A DNA stretch of 32,000 bases from Candidatus Saccharimonadota bacterium (lineage in GTDB: Bacteria; Patescibacteriota; Saccharimonadia; Saccharimonadales; UBA4665): positions 270,001 to 302,000 of the forward strand of contig OY970322.1 of assembly GCA_963716945.1 (NCBI GenBank). Reading direction: 5' to 3'. Below the pieces are notes generated by a model. It saw nothing but the letters and a program-made list of their open reading frames with translations, was not told the origin of the DNA and did not search any database. Positions within the stretch are counted from its first letter, which is position 1, and every line of letters starts with the position of its first letter. A program made the position numbers and the translations under genes. This document shows, piece after piece, positions 2,303-26,407 of this stretch.

Positions 2303-3388
<1,086 letters not shown>

Positions 3389-8094: not shown

Positions 8095-11000
8095 ATGAAG
8101 GCTGAAACCCAAAAAACCCGAAAAAAAAGGTTTCCACAGATCAATATTTCGGTCGCGGTGGGGGTCCTCTTACTGGTGGTAGTAGCCGGCCTTATCATCC
8201 TTAAAGTCACGCACAAGCACAAAGGTTTCCCGATCACCATCGGCTCTACCCGGATCACCGTTCAGGATGTTAATAACTATGCCGCGGAGCTGAAAGCTTA
8301 TTCCAAGCTGAACCCCAACTCCAACTTCGGCGGCAGCCCGACCCAGGTAGCGGTCAACGACCTGGTCCTGAACGCGGCTTTCAAACAGGAGGCCCAAAAG
8401 CTCAACAAACCCCTGACCGATAGCGATATCGCCCAAGCCAACAGTTATGGCGGCACTATGACGACCGCCCAGCAGCAGCAATACCTGGCGGTGCTCCACT
8501 CCGAAAACAAGGCCCTGCAAATCCGGGCGCAAAACATCGCTTACGAGCAAAAATTCGACAGTACTTTCATAGCCAGGAAGAACCTGATGATCGCCGGTAT
8601 CGACTTCGATACGCCTTACTTCGCTAACGCCCCCCAGTCACAAGTGCAGTCACTCTATGACCAGGCTAAAGCCCGGGTCCAGAACACCATTATGCCTTTG
8701 CTCCAGCAGAAGGCGTCCGACACCGAAATCGGCAACCACGTCGACCTGAGTTTCAAAAACGGCCTGCTGACCAAAGGCAACGACAACTATCAGCAGTACT
8801 TCCAGAAAGCCGTCCTCGATATGGATGTCAAAACCGGTTACACCGACGGCGAATCGCTGTTTAACGACATTGACAGTACCGGTTATTTGAGAGGTAATGT
8901 CGGCAAACTTTACAGCACCAACGCCAAGATCGATAGCCTCAAAAACGTCGGCGACAACACCGGCGTTTTCGCGTCTAAAGCCGGGATTTTCATGGTTATC
9001 CGGCTCGATTCCAAGACCGGCGGCAGCTACAATTCGTGGAGCGATTTCCTGGCTCATTACAAGCAGATGTACGGCCTGACTTCTACCAGCCTGACCAAGC
9101 AGCTGGGCACCAAGGTCGCCAGCTCCATCAATAACGTTGTCGAGTCGCTGGCTTCCATCGGTGAAGGGCAGGCCGACGCTACCACCGTTCCGGGTGGCTG
9201 CGGTCAGCACAACGTACAATTCACGGCCCGTTCCTGGGATACGGTCGCCAATACCCCGATCGGCGGTACCGGCACCACTTTCCAGGAGTACCGGCCGCCC
9301 GCTGGTTATGACTGCCCTGGCACGGTCAGCGGCACCGCCACGGCCACGACCGGCGGCCCCAATAATACGATTGACGATAACTGTTTTGCGCCCGCTCCGA
9401 GCTGGGCCGTTAACGCCCTGGCCAGCGGCTACACCCCGGTTAGCGGCGGCCCGTACACGCCCCAGCCCCAGCCTTACACGCCCGGGGCTACGTGGGACAA
9501 CTCGGCCGGCGGCAAAAGCGTGGCTATCCGCTCCGGCCCGGACCCGACTATCGGCAACGGCGACGACTACAACGGCTGGCCGATCTGGACGCCGGGTACC
9601 ATTAATGATACCGGCCACATTTACATAGTCTTCTTATATAAAGGCAACCCCCCTACCTGTACTGATTGTACCTGCACCGGGACTTGCCCGGTGGGCAGGA
9701 CGGTAACCTGTACCAATGTCAGCTTGGACGGTCCGTCCGGGTCGAATCAGGAATACTACGCTTGGGTCAGCGACAGCTCGGGTAATACCGAATTGGGCTC
9801 GACCGTCGTACACCACGGTTCGACCTGGAACGCCTCTTTCCAGCCGGAAGGCCAGCAGATTACCCTCTACGCCTATACGAGTACCCATAATTCTGATGGT
9901 ACGTGGACTAATGGGGCGACGCATGCCATTGCCACGTCCAGCGGCAACTGTTTCGGGGCGGTCTGTTCAATGTACGTTGACGGTAATTTGCCGGATGGCG
10001 GCGTCCTGGCCGGCACTAACTATACGGTGACGGTTACTTTCTCGAATACTAGCCAGCCGGGCGTGACGTTACCGAGTTCCGTTCCCGGCCACGGGCTTGA
10101 CTTAACTACCGGTCCGGGCGGCGGGCCCGGTGTGGGCACCAGCATACCGCCGGGGGGATCGGCTACGTTCTCGTTTACTCAAACGGCGGGCGGGCCCGGC
10201 ACGGGGTCAGTCAGCGGTTACCCCGATTATCACGGCGCCTTCGCCTTAGGGTCGTCGTGCGGCACCAGCTTCAATATCGAAACCAGGTCGGCGTCATGTA
10301 CCATCAATAGTATCGTCGGCACCTTGCCGGGAGGTTATGTTCAGGCCGGCAAGTCGTTCACGGTTAACGCGACGGTCACCAACACCGGTACCTCGGAACT
10401 GGCGTCTTCGGACAACGGCAATCCTTTCTCGCTGAACGCCGGCGACAACAGCGGCGCCAACAGCTACTGGGGCTTCCCCGATAATAATCTCGGAGTGTCG
10501 TTATTCCCCGGACAGTCGGTGCCGGTGTCGTTCACCATTTCCGACGCTAACCTGCCCAGTCCGCCCAATCCGGCCCAGGAAGCCATCTGGGCGCACGTGG
10601 CCTATTCCAACGACTTCAACCTAGGGGGGCAGTGTACGGCTAACGTCGATATGTACGTGCCTTTCGGATTGACGGGCGGGTCGTCTTCGAGTCCAGTCCC
10701 CAGCACCGAGGACCCGACCTCTTTGACCTATAAGACCTGGGTAAATAACTCGGCCCCGGTCGCGGTATCGATACCCGCCGCCGACGGCACCAGCGTCAGC
10801 TCGGTTTACGAAAAGCCGGCCGGCGGCGGCACGCGCGTTATTGTTCCCGGCTATGACGATAGCGGGCCATTCGCGGCCGGCGCCCAGACCGTCATACTAA
10901 ACGGCAGCTCGTCGATTCTGCCGCCGCTCCAGGCCGGCGACGCCTACTATGCCGAAATCGACGTGCCGTTCACGTCGGCTTACGTTGGCGCCAATGGTCC

Positions 11001-12357
11001 CGGTGACGTCGTCGACCCCACGACGCCTGCGACCTATCCGGCCCACTTCACGGTTCAGAACACACCGTTCTTCAAAGTCTATAACGGCAGCGCTTCGGCC
11101 GGCGGCGCCTTTAAGTCGGCCAGCCCGAACTGCAGCGGCGGCGGTGTCCTGGCCAGCTGGAACAACGACAGCGGCACCTACCCGTCCGGCGACTTCGGGG
11201 CCTCGGCCCAGATAGGGGCCTTGGCCCTGGGTCCGATTACCGGTTTTGCCAGCAACCAGTCGGCTTTCAGCAATAACCCTGCCGGTTTGAGTTTCGCCAA
11301 CTCCGTGCTGGCCGATAAGTCACCGCCCGACACCTACAGTCCGGCTTTGGGGGGTAACTTCAATACCGCCCCCGGCGCCGGCGATTGTTTCACCGATGTC
11401 ATACCACCGGCCGGCGTTACGCCGACCGCCGGTCCGGTAACCATTGGCGGCCGGACGGTTTCACCCGGTGCCAGCCAGAACCAGTCGGTCTTCGTCAATG
11501 GCGCCAACGGCAACGTCTATATATCGGGCAACATCTTATATAAGGGCGACAACGGTCTGACCGGTTCGGCCGCCGCCTGGAACAGCCCCAGCGACGTGCC
11601 GTCATTCGTGGTCCACGCTACTGGCAATATTTATATCGGCTCGAACGTTACCGAACTTGACGGCCTGTACGAAGCCAACGGCAAGATTTACACCTGCGCC
11701 CAAAACACCGTTCCGTACTCCGCTGTACCTTTCAACCAGATGTACACCAAGTGTAATAAGCAACTGACCGTCTACGGCAAATTCGTCGCCAACCAAATCA
11801 ACATGGCGCGCACCTTCGGGTCGCTGCGCGACGAGACGCCGATACCCGGTACGGCGCCTACGCTGGCCGCCGGCGAACAACTGAGCAAGCCTCCCCAGCG
11901 TCGCCCGACACAGTACGTCCACATTTGCAATGTCGGCTCCACCACCTACATCACCCAAGGCAGCCCCAATTGTCTGCCCGGCGGTAGCTATTCGGGTGAC
12001 TACGGACCGGGCGTTCCCGGTACCACTTATGACATCCCTTGCTATAACCTGACCGGCACCGTCATACGTCTGGTTTACATATCCGCTCCCGAAACCTGCC
12101 CGGCCGGCACCACGGCCGTCGGCGCCAGCTTGCCCGGCGGTACGCCGGCCCACGCGCCGTCGCCGGCCGAATTGGCCGCTCTGAATTCCGGCACCGGCTG
12201 CAGCAATAACGGCGGCGGCTGGCTGTCCCCGCAAACCTGCGCCGCCGAAGTCTTCTACGCCACGCCGGAGCTTTACCTATCGTCGCCGGCCCTCGGCCAA
12301 CCGAGTTACGGGGCGCCGCAATGGGATTCGATAACCAGTTTGCCGCCGCTGCTATGA
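8095..12357 (+). CDS. giant membrane-anchored surface protein: N-terminal signal-anchor, PpiD/SurA-like module, Cys-rich cluster, two CARDB-like modules, Gly/Asn/Thr-rich C-terminal region
   Basis: 1,420-aa uninterrupted ORF with its own promoter and SD. TM segment 'INISVAVGVLLLVVVAGLIILKV'. See findings for the domain reasoning. No named family recognised for the C-terminal ~570 aa. Confidence 0.85.
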   Translation: MKAETQKTRKKRFPQINISVAVGVLLLVVVAGLIILKVTHKHKGFPITIGSTRITVQDVNNYAAELKAYSKLNPNSNFGGSPTQVAVNDLVLNAAFKQEAQKLNKPLTDSDIAQANSYGGTMTTAQQQQYLAVLHSENKALQIRAQNIAYEQKFDSTFIARKNLMIAGIDFDTPYFANAPQSQVQSLYDQAKARVQNTIMPLLQQKASDTEIGNHVDLSFKNGLLTKGNDNYQQYFQKAVLDMDVKTGYTDGESLFNDIDSTGYLRGNVGKLYSTNAKIDSLKNVGDNTGVFASKAGIFMVIRLDSKTGGSYNSWSDFLAHYKQMYGLTSTSLTKQLGTKVASSINNVVESLASIGEGQADATTVPGGCGQHNVQFTARSWDTVANTPIGGTGTTFQEYRPPAGYDCPGTVSGTATATTGGPNNTIDDNCFAPAPSWAVNALASGYTPVSGGPYTPQPQPYTPGATWDNSAGGKSVAIRSGPDPTIGNGDDYNGWPIWTPGTINDTGHIYIVFLYKGNPPTCTDCTCTGTCPVGRTVTCTNVSLDGPSGSNQEYYAWVSDSSGNTELGSTVVHHGSTWNASFQPEGQQITLYAYTSTHNSDGTWTNGATHAIATSSGNCFGAVCSMYVDGNLPDGGVLAGTNYTVTVTFSNTSQPGVTLPSSVPGHGLDLTTGPGGGPGVGTSIPPGGSATFSFTQTAGGPGTGSVSGYPDYHGAFALGSSCGTSFNIETRSASCTINSIVGTLPGGYVQAGKSFTVNATVTNTGTSELASSDNGNPFSLNAGDNSGANSYWGFPDNNLGVSLFPGQSVPVSFTISDANLPSPPNPAQEAIWAHVAYSNDFNLGGQCTANVDMYVPFGLTGGSSSSPVPSTEDPTSLTYKTWVNNSAPVAVSIPAADGTSVSSVYEKPAGGGTRVIVPGYDDSGPFAAGAQTVILNGSSSILPPLQAGDAYYAEIDVPFTSAYVGANGPGDVVDPTTPATYPAHFTVQNTPFFKVYNGSASAGGAFKSASPNCSGGGVLASWNNDSGTYPSGDFGASAQIGALALGPITGFASNQSAFSNNPAGLSFANSVLADKSPPDTYSPALGGNFNTAPGAGDCFTDVIPPAGVTPTAGPVTIGGRTVSPGASQNQSVFVNGANGNVYISGNILYKGDNGLTGSAAAWNSPSDVPSFVVHATGNIYIGSNVTELDGLYEANGKIYTCAQNTVPYSAVPFNQMYTKCNKQLTVYGKFVANQINMARTFGSLRDETPIPGTAPTLAAGEQLSKPPQRRPTQYVHICNVGSTTYITQGSPNCLPGGSYSGDYGPGVPGTTYDIPCYNLTGTVIRLVYISAPETCPAGTTAVGASLPGGTPAHAPSPAELAALNSGTGCSNNGGGWLSPQTCAAEVFYATPELYLSSPALGQPSYGAPQWDSITSLPPLL

Positions 12358-21390: not shown

Positions 21391-21414
21391 ACTGGCCTTA
21401 CCAGATAACGCTTG

Positions 21415-21423
21415 TGCTATACT
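21415..21423 (+). promoter_or_regulatory. extended -10 TGCTATACT upstream of the minor-pilin operon
   Basis: TGcTATACT lies 9 nt upstream of the ATG at 21433, with no SD between them. Confidence 0.4.
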
Positions 21424-21432
21424 GAAGACAAT

Positions 21433-22239
21433 ATGAAAGGTGGAAAAAAAACACCTCTTGGTTACACTATCATCGAAGTCATGATCGTGTTGGCCGTCTC
21501 CGGGGTAATGTTTCTGATAGCCGCCAATTTCATCAACGGCAAGCAAGAGAAAACAGCCTTCACCCAAGGAGTTAACGAAATGGCCTCCCGCATCCAAGAC
21601 GTTATCGAGCAAGTCACCGACGGCCAGTACAGCGACGTTTTGCTGCAGTGTTCCTGGAACGGCCCCGGCACGCCAACCACCGTTTCGCCGGCCGGTGGGG
21701 CCACGCCTACGCAGGGCACTAACTCGAGCTGCGTCTTCTTGGGCAAGCTAATGTCGTTCACCGATCCGACTACCGACCAGTACCAGGTAGTTTCAATGGC
21801 GGCCGGGCGGGCGGACGCCACCAACGGCGTCACGCCGAGCTTGGCCAGCGTCGACCCGGCGGTCATTACCAGCCTGACCACTACTTCTACCACCGACCAG
21901 TCGCTGGACGTGACCGGCATGTCGGTCACCGATTCCAGCGGTGCCAAGCACATCAACACCTACTACAATATAGGCTTCGTACAGGGGCTGGGGACCGGCG
22001 ATGGGGTCGACAGTTTCCAGTCCGGTTCCCAGACCGTCTCTTTGGTCTATTCGTCGCTCAGTCCGGCCGCGATTAACGGTGCGACGACCACGACGAACCT
22101 GGGTTTGAATACGGCCCAGGCGGCCGTTATTTGTCTGAGTGACGGCACCCAGTCCGCCCAGATCAACATGGGTACTAATGACAATCAGCTGAACGTCGAC
22201 GTTCAGCGCCTGAGTCCGGGGGCGGCATGCACCTTATAA
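21433..22239 (+). CDS. minor pilin 1 (class III signal peptide)
   Basis: 'MKGGKKTPLG|YTIIEVMIVLAVSGVMFL', with Glu+5. The track start at 21412 is a TTG inside the promoter, so the ATG at 21433 is preferred. Confidence 0.8.
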   Translation: MKGGKKTPLGYTIIEVMIVLAVSGVMFLIAANFINGKQEKTAFTQGVNEMASRIQDVIEQVTDGQYSDVLLQCSWNGPGTPTTVSPAGGATPTQGTNSSCVFLGKLMSFTDPTTDQYQVVSMAAGRADATNGVTPSLASVDPAVITSLTTTSTTDQSLDVTGMSVTDSSGAKHINTYYNIGFVQGLGTGDGVDSFQSGSQTVSLVYSSLSPAAINGATTTTNLGLNTAQAAVICLSDGTQSAQINMGTNDNQLNVDVQRLSPGAACTL

Positions 22240-22697
22240 GGCGCCTGAAACAGCCCGGCCAAACCGGGGACACCATTGTCGAAGTCATGGTCGTGCTGGC
22301 TATTCTGGGTCTGGCTATCAGCGTCTCTTACGCTACGGCTAACCGCAGCCTGCTCAATACCCGGCAGGCCCAGGAAAACTCGCAGGCCACCGAACTGATC
22401 CAGTCACAGATCGAGGCCTTGAGGACCTTGGCTGTGGCCGGCGACATGCCTAATATTTTCCAGGCCGGCCCGTACTGCTTGGTGCCGATTGTCCCGCAGC
22501 CCGCTACCGGACCGTATTACACCTTACAGGCCGGCGGCTGCTCCTACCCGCCGATACCTTATAAAGTCGCTATAGCCTACGTTAACAACCCTCCCAGCCA
22601 GCCTGATACTTTCACCGTTACGGCCACCTGGCCGGACGTGCTGGGCGAGGGTAACGACACCGTGACAACTATCTATAGGCTGCACCAGACACCATGA
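22227..22697 (+). CDS. minor pilin 2 (class III signal peptide)
   Basis: '...KQPGQTG|DTIVEVMVVLAILGLAI', with Glu+5. It overlaps the upstream gene by 13 nt. Confidence 0.75.
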   Translation: MHLIRRLKQPGQTGDTIVEVMVVLAILGLAISVSYATANRSLLNTRQAQENSQATELIQSQIEALRTLAVAGDMPNIFQAGPYCLVPIVPQPATGPYYTLQAGGCSYPPIPYKVAIAYVNNPPSQPDTFTVTATWPDVLGEGNDTVTTIYRLHQTP

Positions 22698-24529: not shown

Positions 24530-25438
24530 CTACTTGCGGTGGAACTTCTCGTGCACCGACTTAAGGTGCGGGTCGGTGACATGCGTATAAATTTGGGTCG
24601 TGGCGATATTGCTGTGGCCCAGCATGGCCTGGACCGACCGCAGGTCGGCGCCGTTCATCAGCAGGTCGGTCGCGAAAGAGTGCCTCAGCGTGTGCGGACT
24701 GACGTGTTTGGTGATACCGGCCATCAGCGCCGACCGGGCGACGATCCGCTGCACGCTCCGGGCCGTCAGCCGGTGGAAGTTACCGGACAGGTCAACCTGC
24801 TTGCTGCCGCTATAACGAACAAACAATGGTCTCGCCGTGTCTGCCCGCTTGCTTAAATAGTGTTCAACCCATTTCGCGGCCTCGGCGCTGATGAATATCG
24901 GCCGGTCTTTCTGGCCTTTGCCGCGGACCATGAACTCCCGCCGTTTCAAATTAATATGGTCGCGGTCCAGTCCCACCAGCTCGCTGACCCGCAGCCCGGA
25001 ACTGAAGAGTAGTTCAAGAATCGCCCGGTCGCGCACCCCGCTCAAGGTGTTCAGGTCGGGCTGAGCAAATACCCGCGCCAATTCTTCCTCATTTAGGAAG
25101 GTCACTTGTTTGCGCCTGGTCCGCGCCAGTTCGACCTTATCGGCCGTCAGGGCGGGTAAATCGCGCTTCGCACAATATTTGAGGAAACTGCGCAGCGCGA
25201 TCAAATGGTAGTTCTGCGTCGTCTTGCCAAGTTCGTCGGACGTATTGGTGCCCAGACGGTTCAGCCACAGCCGCCACTTGCGCACCATTTCGGCGTCAAT
25301 ATCCGACACCTCGATATCGCCGGCGAAATCAATCAGCCGGGTCAGGTAGTGGTCATAGTTCTGAATCGTCTTCTGCGACCGGTTCTGCTCGATTTCCAAA
25401 TACTCCAGAAAATCGGTCTTGGCTTTGGCAAACAGCAT
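24530..25438 (-). CDS. xerC: tyrosine recombinase, XerC/XerD family
   Basis: 302 aa. It has an N-terminal SAM-like domain. The catalytic set is visible: 'SGLRVSELVGL' (R), 'HTLRHSFAT' (H-x-x-R), 'LGHSNIATTQIYTHV' (H...Y). Confidence 0.9.
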   Translation of the reverse strand: MLFAKAKTDFLEYLEIEQNRSQKTIQNYDHYLTRLIDFAGDIEVSDIDAEMVRKWRLWLNRLGTNTSDELGKTTQNYHLIALRSFLKYCAKRDLPALTADKVELARTRRKQVTFLNEEELARVFAQPDLNTLSGVRDRAILELLFSSGLRVSELVGLDRDHINLKRREFMVRGKGQKDRPIFISAEAAKWVEHYLSKRADTARPLFVRYSGSKQVDLSGNFHRLTARSVQRIVARSALMAGITKHVSPHTLRHSFATDLLMNGADLRSVQAMLGHSNIATTQIYTHVTDPHLKSVHEKFHRK

Positions 25439-25444
25439 AAGCTC

Positions 25445-25453
25445 ATTGTAACA
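25445..25453 (-). promoter_or_regulatory. extended -10 TGTTACAAT 6 nt upstream of the xerC ATG (leaderless candidate)
   Basis: Minus strand reads tTGtTACAAT-gagctt-ATG. No SD. Confidence 0.45.
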
Positions 25454-25469
25454 AAGCCGGGTAAGTAAT

Positions 25470-25481
25470 AGGCTCGAGCCT
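25470..25481. repeat. 12-bp perfect GC-rich palindrome AGGCTCGAGCCT at about -35 of the xerC promoter
   Basis: Read directly from the sequence. It is embedded in AT-rich DNA 32-43 nt upstream of the xerC start. Confidence 0.6.
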
Positions 25482-25558
25482 TAATAACTCATTAAGATAT
25501 TTCGACTGTCTGGGGTTTTACGGTAGGCTTTCATGAGTACCATATACCGGCGGGAACT

Positions 25559-25632
25559 CCCATATCAGAGCCTTACCAAACCAGTATCAAAACATATGTT
25601 TTGATACGACTATCATAATGCTTTGATATGGG
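25559..25632. repeat. 74-bp dyad: 24-bp perfect palindrome GTATCAAAACATATGTTTTGATAC (25584-25607) concentric with 9-bp inverted repeat CCCATATCA / TGATATGGG
   Basis: Both symmetry elements share the centre 25595/25596. There are five TATCA/TGATA half-sites. It lies between xerC and the RHH gene. Confidence 0.85.
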
Positions 25633-25676
25633 GGCTTCAGCCGCGCAATATAAAAGCGGCAGCCGGAGGGCGGCAG

Positions 25677-25895
25677 ATGTTCCACATCAGCAAAATCGTT
25701 ACCATCCAGATACCGATCGAAGAAGAAATGCGGGATGCCCTGCGTCGCAAAGCCCAATTTTTGGGCTTTGACTCAATCCAGGCTTACATACGTTTTTGGG
25801 CCAAGGCGGAGGTCGAAGGCCGCAAGATCGAGGTAGACGACACTGGCTGGGAACCGGATTTGTTCATGGAGCCCAAACACCCTGGTGGCAAATAA
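25677..25895 (+). CDS. small ribbon-helix-helix (CopG/Arc-like) protein
   Basis: GGAGGG lies 6 nt upstream of the ATG at 25677 (the track uses TTG at 25623). 'IVTIQIPIEEEMRDALRRKAQFLGFDSIQAYIRFWAKAE' fits a beta-strand, helix, helix pattern. 72 aa. Confidence 0.5.
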   Translation: MFHISKIVTIQIPIEEEMRDALRRKAQFLGFDSIQAYIRFWAKAEVEGRKIEVDDTGWEPDLFMEPKHPGGK

Positions 25896-25942
25896 ACGCC
25901 ATCCCTGTTAAAATAAGACCAACTAAACAAGGAATATCATAA

Positions 25943-26407
25943 GTGGAAAGAACCCTGATCATTGCTAAACCGGACGCCATCCAGCGGGGCCTGATCGGCG
26001 AAATCATCAGCCGCTTGGAGCGCAAGGGCCTCAAGCTGATCGGCATCAAAATGTCCAGTCTCGACGAGGCCATGCTGCGCAGCCACTACGCCGAACACGT
26101 CGATAAGTCATTCTACAAGGGCCTTGAACAATTTATGAAGAGTTCGCCGGTCGTTGTCATGGCCTGGGAAGGCTACGAGTGCGTCGAATCCGTCCGCACG
26201 CTGGTCGGCGCCACCAATCCGCGCCAAGCCTCGCCCGGCTCTATCAGGGGTGATTTGGCTATCGGTACCGGCCGTAACCTGGTCCACGCTTCGGACTCCA
26301 AGAGCAGCGGTGAAGCCGAAGTCGCCAGCTTCTTCAATGCCAAGGAATTACTCGATTACGACAAGTCCGAGTACCTGCACATATACGAAGACTTTGAGCG
26401 CAATTAG
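25943..26407 (+). CDS. ndk: nucleoside diphosphate kinase
   Basis: GTG start. 'ERTLIIAKPDAIQRGLIGEIISRLERKGLKL', and the active-site His context 'NLVHASDS'. Confidence 0.95.
   Translation: MERTLIIAKPDAIQRGLIGEIISRLERKGLKLIGIKMSSLDEAMLRSHYAEHVDKSFYKGLEQFMKSSPVVVMAWEGYECVESVRTLVGATNPRQASPGSIRGDLAIGTGRNLVHASDSKSSGEAEVASFFNAKELLDYDKSEYLHIYEDFERN

Follow-up and report, generated by a model that had tools for sequence, protein, structure and literature searches.

The locus and its palindromic dyad

The stretch of DNA considered here comprises 32 kb of contig OY970322.1 from a Candidatus Saccharimonadota bacterium and is referred to as the window in the following. The proteins it encodes match those of Saccharimonadales best. 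It contains a type IV pilus cluster (PilM, two T2SSE ATPases, T2SSF, a prepilin peptidase, pilin-like genes and a PilX-like gene), followed by a gene for an Xer-type tyrosine recombinase (xer) on the minus strand, a 239-bp region that holds a palindromic dyad, an open reading frame (ORF) of 72 amino acids on the plus strand and ndk, also on the plus strand. Here, we focus on the dyad, which a sequence-only reading had taken for either a dif-like recombination site of Xer or an operator of the small gene. The main features of the locus are:

24530-25438, minus strand: xer, a housekeeping Xer-type tyrosine recombinase of 302 amino acids (family models and conservation)
25548-25643, no strand: maximal imperfect dyad of 96 bp with 48-nt arms that are 75% complementary (repeat search)
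25559-25632, no strand: 74-bp concentric dyad, in which the outer arms CCCATATCA and TGATATGGG flank the 24-bp core
25584-25607, no strand: core palindrome with the halves GTATCAAAACAT and ATGTTTTGATAC, containing both inner TTTGATA subsites and the central CATATG
25677-25895, plus strand: small gene for an orphan, C-terminally short protein of 72 amino acids, assigned to an antitoxin family from homologues and YafQ neighbours and ribbon-helix-helix (RHH)-like by structure model
25943-26407, plus strand: ndk, with an extended -10 box of its own (TG at 25906-25907, TAAAAT at 25909-25914)

The core, GTATCAAAACATATGTTTTGATAC as read from the window letters, is a perfect 24-bp palindrome centred on 25595/25596. 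The 9-bp outer arms (25559-25567 and 25624-25632) share this centre and exactly 8 of the 16 intervening positions on each side are symmetric as well, which amounts to 29 of 37 positions per side for the 74-bp dyad. The pentamer TATCA/TGATA occurs five times (25563, 25585, 25602, 25611 and 25624). Its distance is 146-169 bp to the start codon of xer (25438) and 70-93 bp to that of the small gene (25677). The coordinates, counts and distances given in the sequence-only reading are all correct.

The dyad is a non-random element and not a chance feature. When the window was simulated 300 times with a first-order Markov model, only 2 runs reached a palindrome half-length of 12. The core 24-mer has no second copy in the window at up to three mismatches, and none of 100 shuffles contained a match. 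For the 96-mer as single-stranded DNA, a folding energy of -22.2 kcal/mol (z = -6.6) is predicted, and none of 200 shuffles was as good. Ten TTTGRTA heptamers are found in the window, four of them within 55 bp at 25574-25628, and about 4.9 are expected per 32 kb. Moreover, related genomes have kept the dyad, and double changes in its outer arms are compensatory. A dispersed repeat of the repetitive extragenic palindromic (REP) type or of the miniature inverted-repeat transposable element (MITE) type was considered and rejected, with one copy in the window and 17 stretches in the whole metagenome collection. An Rfam scan of the window returned two tRNAs only and no match at the dyad.

Co-inheritance of the dyad with the small gene

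For comparison we used one genome per GTDB species, which returned 80 loci (L001-L080) from Saccharimonadales. Xer is 84-97% identical in all 80 and the pilX-xer/ndk synteny is preserved throughout. None of these loci contains the palindrome, whether sought by exact pattern, as perfect inverted repeats (arms of at least 7) or by a relaxed whole-locus pattern, and tblastn detected no 72-aa protein in any of them. The closest relative is L001 (Xer 97%). Its alignment with the window shows high identity in xer and ndk, and between the two genes about 446 bp of the window stand against about 39 bp of the L001 spacer. This defines one further feature:

25459-25904, no strand: inserted cassette of about 446 bp (left segment, dyad and RHH-like gene), replacing about 39 bp of L001

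The left segment of the cassette is about 90 bp long. A stretch within it, CTTAATAA.T.ATTAAG.TTTTT...TTTTAGC.TAATCT (25476-25547), is conserved in L082, L083, L110 and the xer-independent L099, and could be a promoter or a terminator-like element.

Small proteins with 79-90% identity to that of the window are encoded on other metagenomic Saccharimonadales contigs, in all examined cases between xer and ndk. The dyad is found at equal upstream distance in L081-L084, L097, L108 and L110, of which L097 and L108 emerged as xer-linked cassettes from a metagenome scan. In every cassette copy the core is invariant or nearly so, though the flanks have diverged. The outer arms CCCATATCA/TGATATGGG are replaced by CCCACATCA/TGATGTGGG in L082 and by CTTTACTAAA/TTTGGTAAAG in L110, and these changes are compensatory.

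The association also holds away from xer. L099 and L108 are located on one 30.7-kb contig, where L099 represents a second copy of 283 bp that is 82% identical to the L108 copy. Its core is perfect, and the small gene beside it ends prematurely at a stop codon after residue 30. L099 abuts a gene for a major facilitator superfamily (MFS) transporter, with no xer nearby. In L091, a 70%-identical homologue is found beside MazG/NUDIX and trehalase genes; its upstream region contains TTTGGCA repeats and the core AAAACATATGTTTT. As the copies in L091 and L099 lie away from xer and one contig can carry two copies, the site follows the gene, can occur more than once per genome and needs no xer. All close homologues examined are accompanied by the dyad or its core, and loci without the gene lack it, save for a solo dyad in L103.

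In L103, positions 1755-1830 hold a perfect 22-bp core about 115 bp upstream of a gene for a secreted-protease-like protein of 403 amino acids, beside RNase J. The same metagenome also holds a cassette-bearing contig. The RHH protein might act on this solo dyad in trans; alternatively, the dyad could be a remnant. The scan of the metagenome collection for TATCAAANCATATGNTTTGATA yielded the 17 stretches mentioned above, 12 or 13 of which are in unrelated low-GC contigs. Among these, L093, L094, L096, L098, L101 and L105, some from human gut, carry ATATCAAAACATATGTTTTGATAT beside a second palindrome, GTCAAAACTTATGTTTTGAC/G. These contigs with the same 22-mer come from unrelated organisms, and the sites are perhaps operators of another repressor.

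A tblastn search of plasmids found nothing, and a scan of IMG/VR with the family profile gave one weak match (32% over 34 residues). Thus, there is no sign of a phage or plasmid origin of the gene.

The small protein and its antitoxin family

A family profile search collected 779 clusters, mostly of about 95 amino acids and from Saccharimonadales, with no Pfam domain. A few clusters are labeled by JGI as the antitoxin component of RelBE/YafQ-DinJ modules. Furthermore, distant homologues (45-65% identity, 93-106 amino acids; L085, L086-L090, L111, L115 and L116) are encoded directly upstream of genes that match Pfam YafQ_toxin (E = 8e-11), with an overlap of at least 4 bp. This position corresponds to the antitoxin slot of a type II module. 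The full YafQ-linked module is divergent beside the gene for the GTPase YchF in L085, L089 and L090; at the YchF gene of the window (2303-3388, minus strand) there is no such module.

In the family alignment, the N-terminal 50 residues or so are almost invariant (VKIQVPID..RD.L..RA..LGFDSIQAYIRFWAKAE). Toxin-linked members continue with a tail of about 45 residues, whereas the window protein and its close relatives have 16 divergent residues in this place. At its C-terminus, the window protein is therefore about 30 residues shorter than the toxin-linked homologues, whose conserved ending ...SVEEFMKDL is missing from it. No toxin ORF is present at the window locus, where 47 bp separate the stop of the small gene (25895) from ndk (25943). 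Judged by its homologues and their neighbours, the 72-aa gene derives from the antitoxin of a Saccharimonadales-specific YafQ-type family and has lost both the toxin gene and the C-terminal tail.

An AlphaFold2 model built from 55 sequences shows two helices (residues 16-28 and 34-47) that follow an extended N-terminus, and the predicted local distance difference test score (pLDDT) is about 90 for residues 11-50. T9 and Q11 are candidates for residues that contact bases. The top Foldseek matches of the model are RHH proteins, namely Arc, NikR (root-mean-square deviation 1.1-1.2 Å over 41 residues), FitA and ParD/PrpA. By this model the small protein is RHH-like, and by its genomic context it is antitoxin-derived, placed outside the DinJ and RelB families.

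Subsites and the operator reading

The dyad can be described as six TTTGRTA-like subsites, three in each orientation, with a spacing of 11 bp within each side. Repeated subsites phased about one helical turn apart are therefore present at the dyad. The subsites and the accompanying gene signals are:

25563-25569, minus strand: left outer subsite TATCAGA (reverse complement TCTGATA, 6 of 7 positions as in TTTGATA; sequence reading)
25574-25580, minus strand: left middle subsite TACCAAA (reverse complement TTTGGTA; heptamer search)
25585-25591, minus strand: left core subsite TATCAAA (reverse complement TTTGATA; heptamer search)
25600-25606, plus strand: right core subsite TTTGATA (heptamer search)
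25611-25617, plus strand: right middle subsite TATCATA, degenerate (5 of 7 positions), where relatives have TTTGATA or TTTGGCA
25622-25628, plus strand: right outer subsite TTTGATA, overlapping the candidate -35 box TTGATA (25623-25628)
25646-25651, plus strand: candidate -10 box CAATAT, proposed from sequence, 17 bp after TTGATA
25665-25670, plus strand: Shine-Dalgarno sequence GGAGGG, 6 nt before the ATG of the small gene

Since the subsites are exactly 11 bp apart within each side, all of them face one side of the helix. A loosely conserved GCAATA-like box is found in relatives at the position of the candidate -10 box. The tandem TTTGRTA-N4-TTTGRTA occurs in 7 of the 117 loci compared and always at most 110 bp upstream of a family gene. 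Moreover, the same subsite at 11-bp tandem spacing is located directly upstream of the start codons of the YafQ-linked homologues in L111 (upstream region CTTTGATACTATTTTGGTACTATG) and L116 (promoter region TTGACA...ATTTTGATACCATTTTGATACTATG). In a third YafQ-linked homologue, L086, TATCAAA-N17-TTTTGATA extends across the -35 and -10 boxes.

Taken together, the dyad is likely the autoregulatory operator of the adjacent gene for an orphan RHH antitoxin-like repressor, where we infer binding, repression and the position of the promoter. The sequence-only reading had named an operator array of the RHH gene as one of its two options, and this option is supported by the co-inheritance of dyad and gene, by the 11-bp phasing of the subsites and by the same subsite upstream of toxin-linked homologues.

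In the mechanism that we propose, the six TTTGRTA-like subsites, all on one helix face, would be occupied by RHH dimers. The perfect 24-bp core would provide the subsite pair of highest affinity, at which binding nucleates, and cooperative occupancy could then spread outward to the flanking subsites until it reaches the right outer one. As this subsite overlaps the candidate -35 box, its occupancy would switch off the promoter of the gene itself. Since no terminator is predicted between the small gene and ndk, part of the ndk expression could come from read-through and be regulated as well. As a unit, the cassette of left segment, dyad and gene is an insertion into the hypervariable spacer between the divergent promoters of xer and ndk.

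Several results weigh against this interpretation. A scan for promoter and terminator consensus sequences found no match in the dyad, and TTGATA-17-CAATAT is below its threshold. The subsite is unclear upstream of some YafQ-linked homologues (L085, L089 and L115). L103 indicates that the site can exist without a cis-linked RHH gene, and compensatory changes in the outer arms are also expected of a hairpin or cruciform element. On the protein side, Pfam and NCBIfam scans of the window protein gave no family, and Pfam RHH_1 was reached at E of about 0.03 in 2 of 21 family members. Profile searches of the PDB produced a single match, to an unrelated cell-wall amidase (E = 0.016-0.044), and hhalign against E. 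coli DinJ and RelB (sequences entered by hand) indicated no similarity (probability below 1%). All Foldseek E-values are above 0.1, which is usual for a domain of 40 residues. Hence, the earlier description of the small gene as RHH agrees with the structure model but reaches significance neither in family searches nor by Foldseek E-value.

The symmetry of the dyad could also act as structure, either in the transcript, as a hairpin for stability or processing of the 5' untranslated region, or in DNA as a cruciform or single-strand hairpin. The strong predicted hairpin (-22.2 kcal/mol, z = -6.6) fits this explanation, as do compensatory double substitutions that keep pairing at positions 23, 25, 26 and 30-35 from the centre. 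What is best conserved, however, goes beyond pairing and consists of the core and the TTTGRTA sequence at 11-bp phasing. In YafQ-linked homologues the subsite is arranged in direct repeats, which cannot pair and thus argue against a hairpin. G-T mismatches are about as frequent as A-C mismatches, so that neither strand looks preferred as RNA, and the Rfam scan provided no match. A structural role in place of protein binding is decidedly unlikely.

Alternatively, the dyad might be a decaying relic, that is, the operator of a toxin-less toxin-antitoxin module that has no function now and is kept because it is young. The toxin and the antitoxin tail are gone, most relatives lack the cassette, and the L099 copy is visibly decaying (premature stop, truncated). 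On the other hand, the frame of 72 amino acids is intact and preceded by a strong Shine-Dalgarno sequence. Versions of the protein with 79-90% identity are found in several distinct clusters, and wherever the DNA of these was read, the dyad has been kept. In addition, compensatory changes preserve the symmetry of the dyad, and the 24-bp core is the same between genomes with diverged flanks. We therefore consider a relic unlikely and retain an operator in use by the RHH-like protein as the preferred explanation.

The Xer recombinase and the xer-ndk spacer

The Xer protein of the window scores high against the XerC, XerD and XerA models and passes the cut-off of XerA only (227 bits versus 220); against the XerS model it reaches 113 bits with a cut-off of 267. 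An extended -10 box of xer, TGTTACAAT, is located at 25445-25453 on the minus strand, where conservation points to the promoter. The xer ATG follows 6 nt past this box, which probably makes the mRNA leaderless. As the xer promoter is about 95 bp from the edge of the dyad, it is probably unaffected by dyad occupancy. In the window and in the spacers of L001-L080, both divergent promoters appear to have an extended -10 box, TGnTACAAT or TGTTAAAAT, and no clear -35 box. Xer is 84-97% identical over the 80 species, while the PilX-like protein encoded next to it reaches just 25-49% identity in most, suggesting that the single Xer is under unusually strong constraint. The identity of ndk products to the window protein is bimodal in L001-L080, either about 75-90% or about 37-45%, with the same position and a near-identical xer. 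This suggests two ndk lineages, or one that was replaced by the other.

The xer-ndk spacer varies in length from 55 to 1340 bp across species, and the shortest spacers leave no room for a dif site. Eleven loci (L011, L012, L016, L017, L024, L027, L032, L036, L045, L048 and L074) carry a gene of the XRE helix-turn-helix (HTH) type in it, which encodes about 100 amino acids and is divergent from xer (Pfam HTH_3, E of about 1e-16). Several of these genes are preceded by an unrelated palindrome of 16-18 bp, ATAGCATATATGCTAT or a variant. Other RHH-like genes occupy the spacer in L005 and L034, and small membrane proteins are encoded there in L010 and L037. This gene content marks the spacer as a hotspot at which small, self-regulated genes for DNA-binding proteins are repeatedly inserted, and the placement of the dyad next to xer probably reflects this hotspot and not a functional tie to the recombinase. 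The L026 spacer contains a tandem heptamer, GTCTACT, in at least 5 copies.

These data bear on the other option of the sequence-only reading, in which the core is a recombination site of Xer, either dif-like for a single recombinase or an attachment (att) site by which Xer captured the small-gene cassette. Sites of the dif type are about 28-31 bp long, with two inverted arms of about 11 bp around a central region of 6-11 bp. The core can be parsed accordingly as CAGTATCAAAA-CATATG-TTTTGATACGA (11-6-11). This parse is met by any 24-bp palindrome, however, and carries little weight. The dyad adjoins the sole recombinase gene of the window, and this Xer passes only the cut-off of the single-recombinase XerA model (227 versus 220 bits). 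In XerS and XerH systems the site is near the recombinase gene. Examples of arms that end in GAAAA exist, among them AGTTATGAAAA of difH, and the A-rich inner arm ends of the core resemble those of difH and difSL (PMC5357621). Finally, the xer-ndk spacer repeatedly holds differing small genes, each with a palindrome.

Against this stands the distribution of the dyad. Not one of the 80 species with 84-97% identical Xer carries the palindrome, so that it is conserved beside no xer orthologue in these loci, and in the window it is part of the insertion of about 446 bp relative to L001. Two dyad copies occur on one 30.7-kb contig and a solo copy on another (L103), and dyad or core accompany homologous genes far from xer (L091 and L099). 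The other cassettes of the spacer bear palindromes of unrelated sequence and Xer is nearly invariant, so that one recombinase is not plausibly using all of them. Reading of the window, the L001 alignment and the spacers revealed no repeated core site at the two cassette borders. The GC skew has no sign change at 25.6 kb and is negative at 19-25 and 27-30 kb, where 32 kb are too short to place the terminus. A literature search on dif in Saccharibacteria gave nothing relevant. A dif-like or att site is thus highly improbable, the least probable of the explanations weighed here.

An integron, in which the recombinase would adjoin cassettes that carry imperfect palindromes, was rejected as well: Xer reaches 145.8 bits with the integron integrase model TIGR02249 (cut-off 265) and 90 with NF011946 (cut-off 435), and the dyad is upstream of the ORF, not downstream. 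The TIGR02249 score, together with 113 bits against the cut-off of 267 for XerS, also counts against an Xer site. It is very unlikely that Xer uses the dyad besides or instead of the RHH protein, with the xer-ndk spacer as a capture site resembling an integron or an integrative mobile element exploiting Xer (IMEX), or, in a milder form, that the RHH protein has become a domesticated regulator in trans. If Xer capture were true, small regulator cassettes with their own palindromes would be inserted and exchanged by the housekeeping single Xer in Saccharibacteria. If the toxin-less RHH protein were domesticated, it would have extra targets, including the L103 solo dyad upstream of the secreted-protease-like gene.

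Comparison with known systems

The operator proposed here is best compared with that of RelB, whose dimers autorepress by filling repeated hexads along a single face of a palindromic operator (PMC2812701). Both have short repeated subsites on one helix face within a palindrome, with four hexads over 24 bp in the RelB operator (PMC2812701) and six subsites over 66-74 bp in the dyad. As in RelB/relO and DinJ-YafQ, a small protein has an N-terminal strand-helix-helix domain, here modelled, and family homologues fill the antitoxin slot upstream of YafQ-type toxin genes. Unlike in RelB and DinJ-YafQ, the window locus has neither a toxin gene nor a C-terminal toxin-binding tail, and conditional cooperativity is therefore impossible. 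Sequence similarity to RelB or DinJ was not detected (with reference sequences entered by hand), and the family has no Pfam model.

The small protein resembles Arc, CopG and omega in that it is predicted to be a stand-alone small RHH-like repressor with subsites about one helical turn apart, and Arc is the top structural match of its model. In contrast to these three, its gene is part of a Saccharibacteria chromosome rather than of a phage or plasmid, its origin lies in an antitoxin family, and binding is predicted. A further parallel are orphan (solo) antitoxins, in which an antitoxin-family gene has likewise kept its DNA-binding domain and its operator (both predicted here) without a cognate toxin. 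Here, unlike in orphan antitoxins, the C-terminal tail is also lost, and the short form occurs in several species at one xer-ndk slot.

Similarities to difSL/XerS, difH/XerH and archaeal dif/XerA are the position beside an Xer-family gene, the 11-6-11 parse and the A-rich inner arm ends (PMC5357621). In contrast to dif sites, the dyad is not conserved with the recombinase, is part of an insertion, is non-unique in a related genome and is linked to a small gene. Moreover, its core is perfectly symmetric, whereas known dif sites have imperfect symmetry.

Implications and further observations

The analysis removes a tempting but wrong dif annotation, and in this clade proximity to xer is no evidence for dif. 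To our knowledge, the true dimer-resolution site of Saccharibacteria (candidate phyla radiation) is still undescribed. For the family of 779 clusters of YafQ-paired Saccharimonadales antitoxins, the dyad offers a putative recognition element (TTTGRTA at 11-bp phasing) together with a domain layout, and the cassette records a short form that lacks a toxin partner and has become fixed in a single chromosomal slot. The operator would be an element of an ordinary kind, and general views of operators and toxin-antitoxin systems are unchanged.

Two further observations concern the pilus region of the window. Upstream of the pilus genes, an ORF of 1420 amino acids (8095-12357) has no Pfam domain at E <= 1e-5. 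A second perfect palindrome, GCTGAACGTCGACGTTCAGC (20 bp, 22188-22207), is located at the junction of the pilin-like ORFs 21412-22239 and 22227-22697; a half-length of at least 10 was reached in 16 of 300 simulations.

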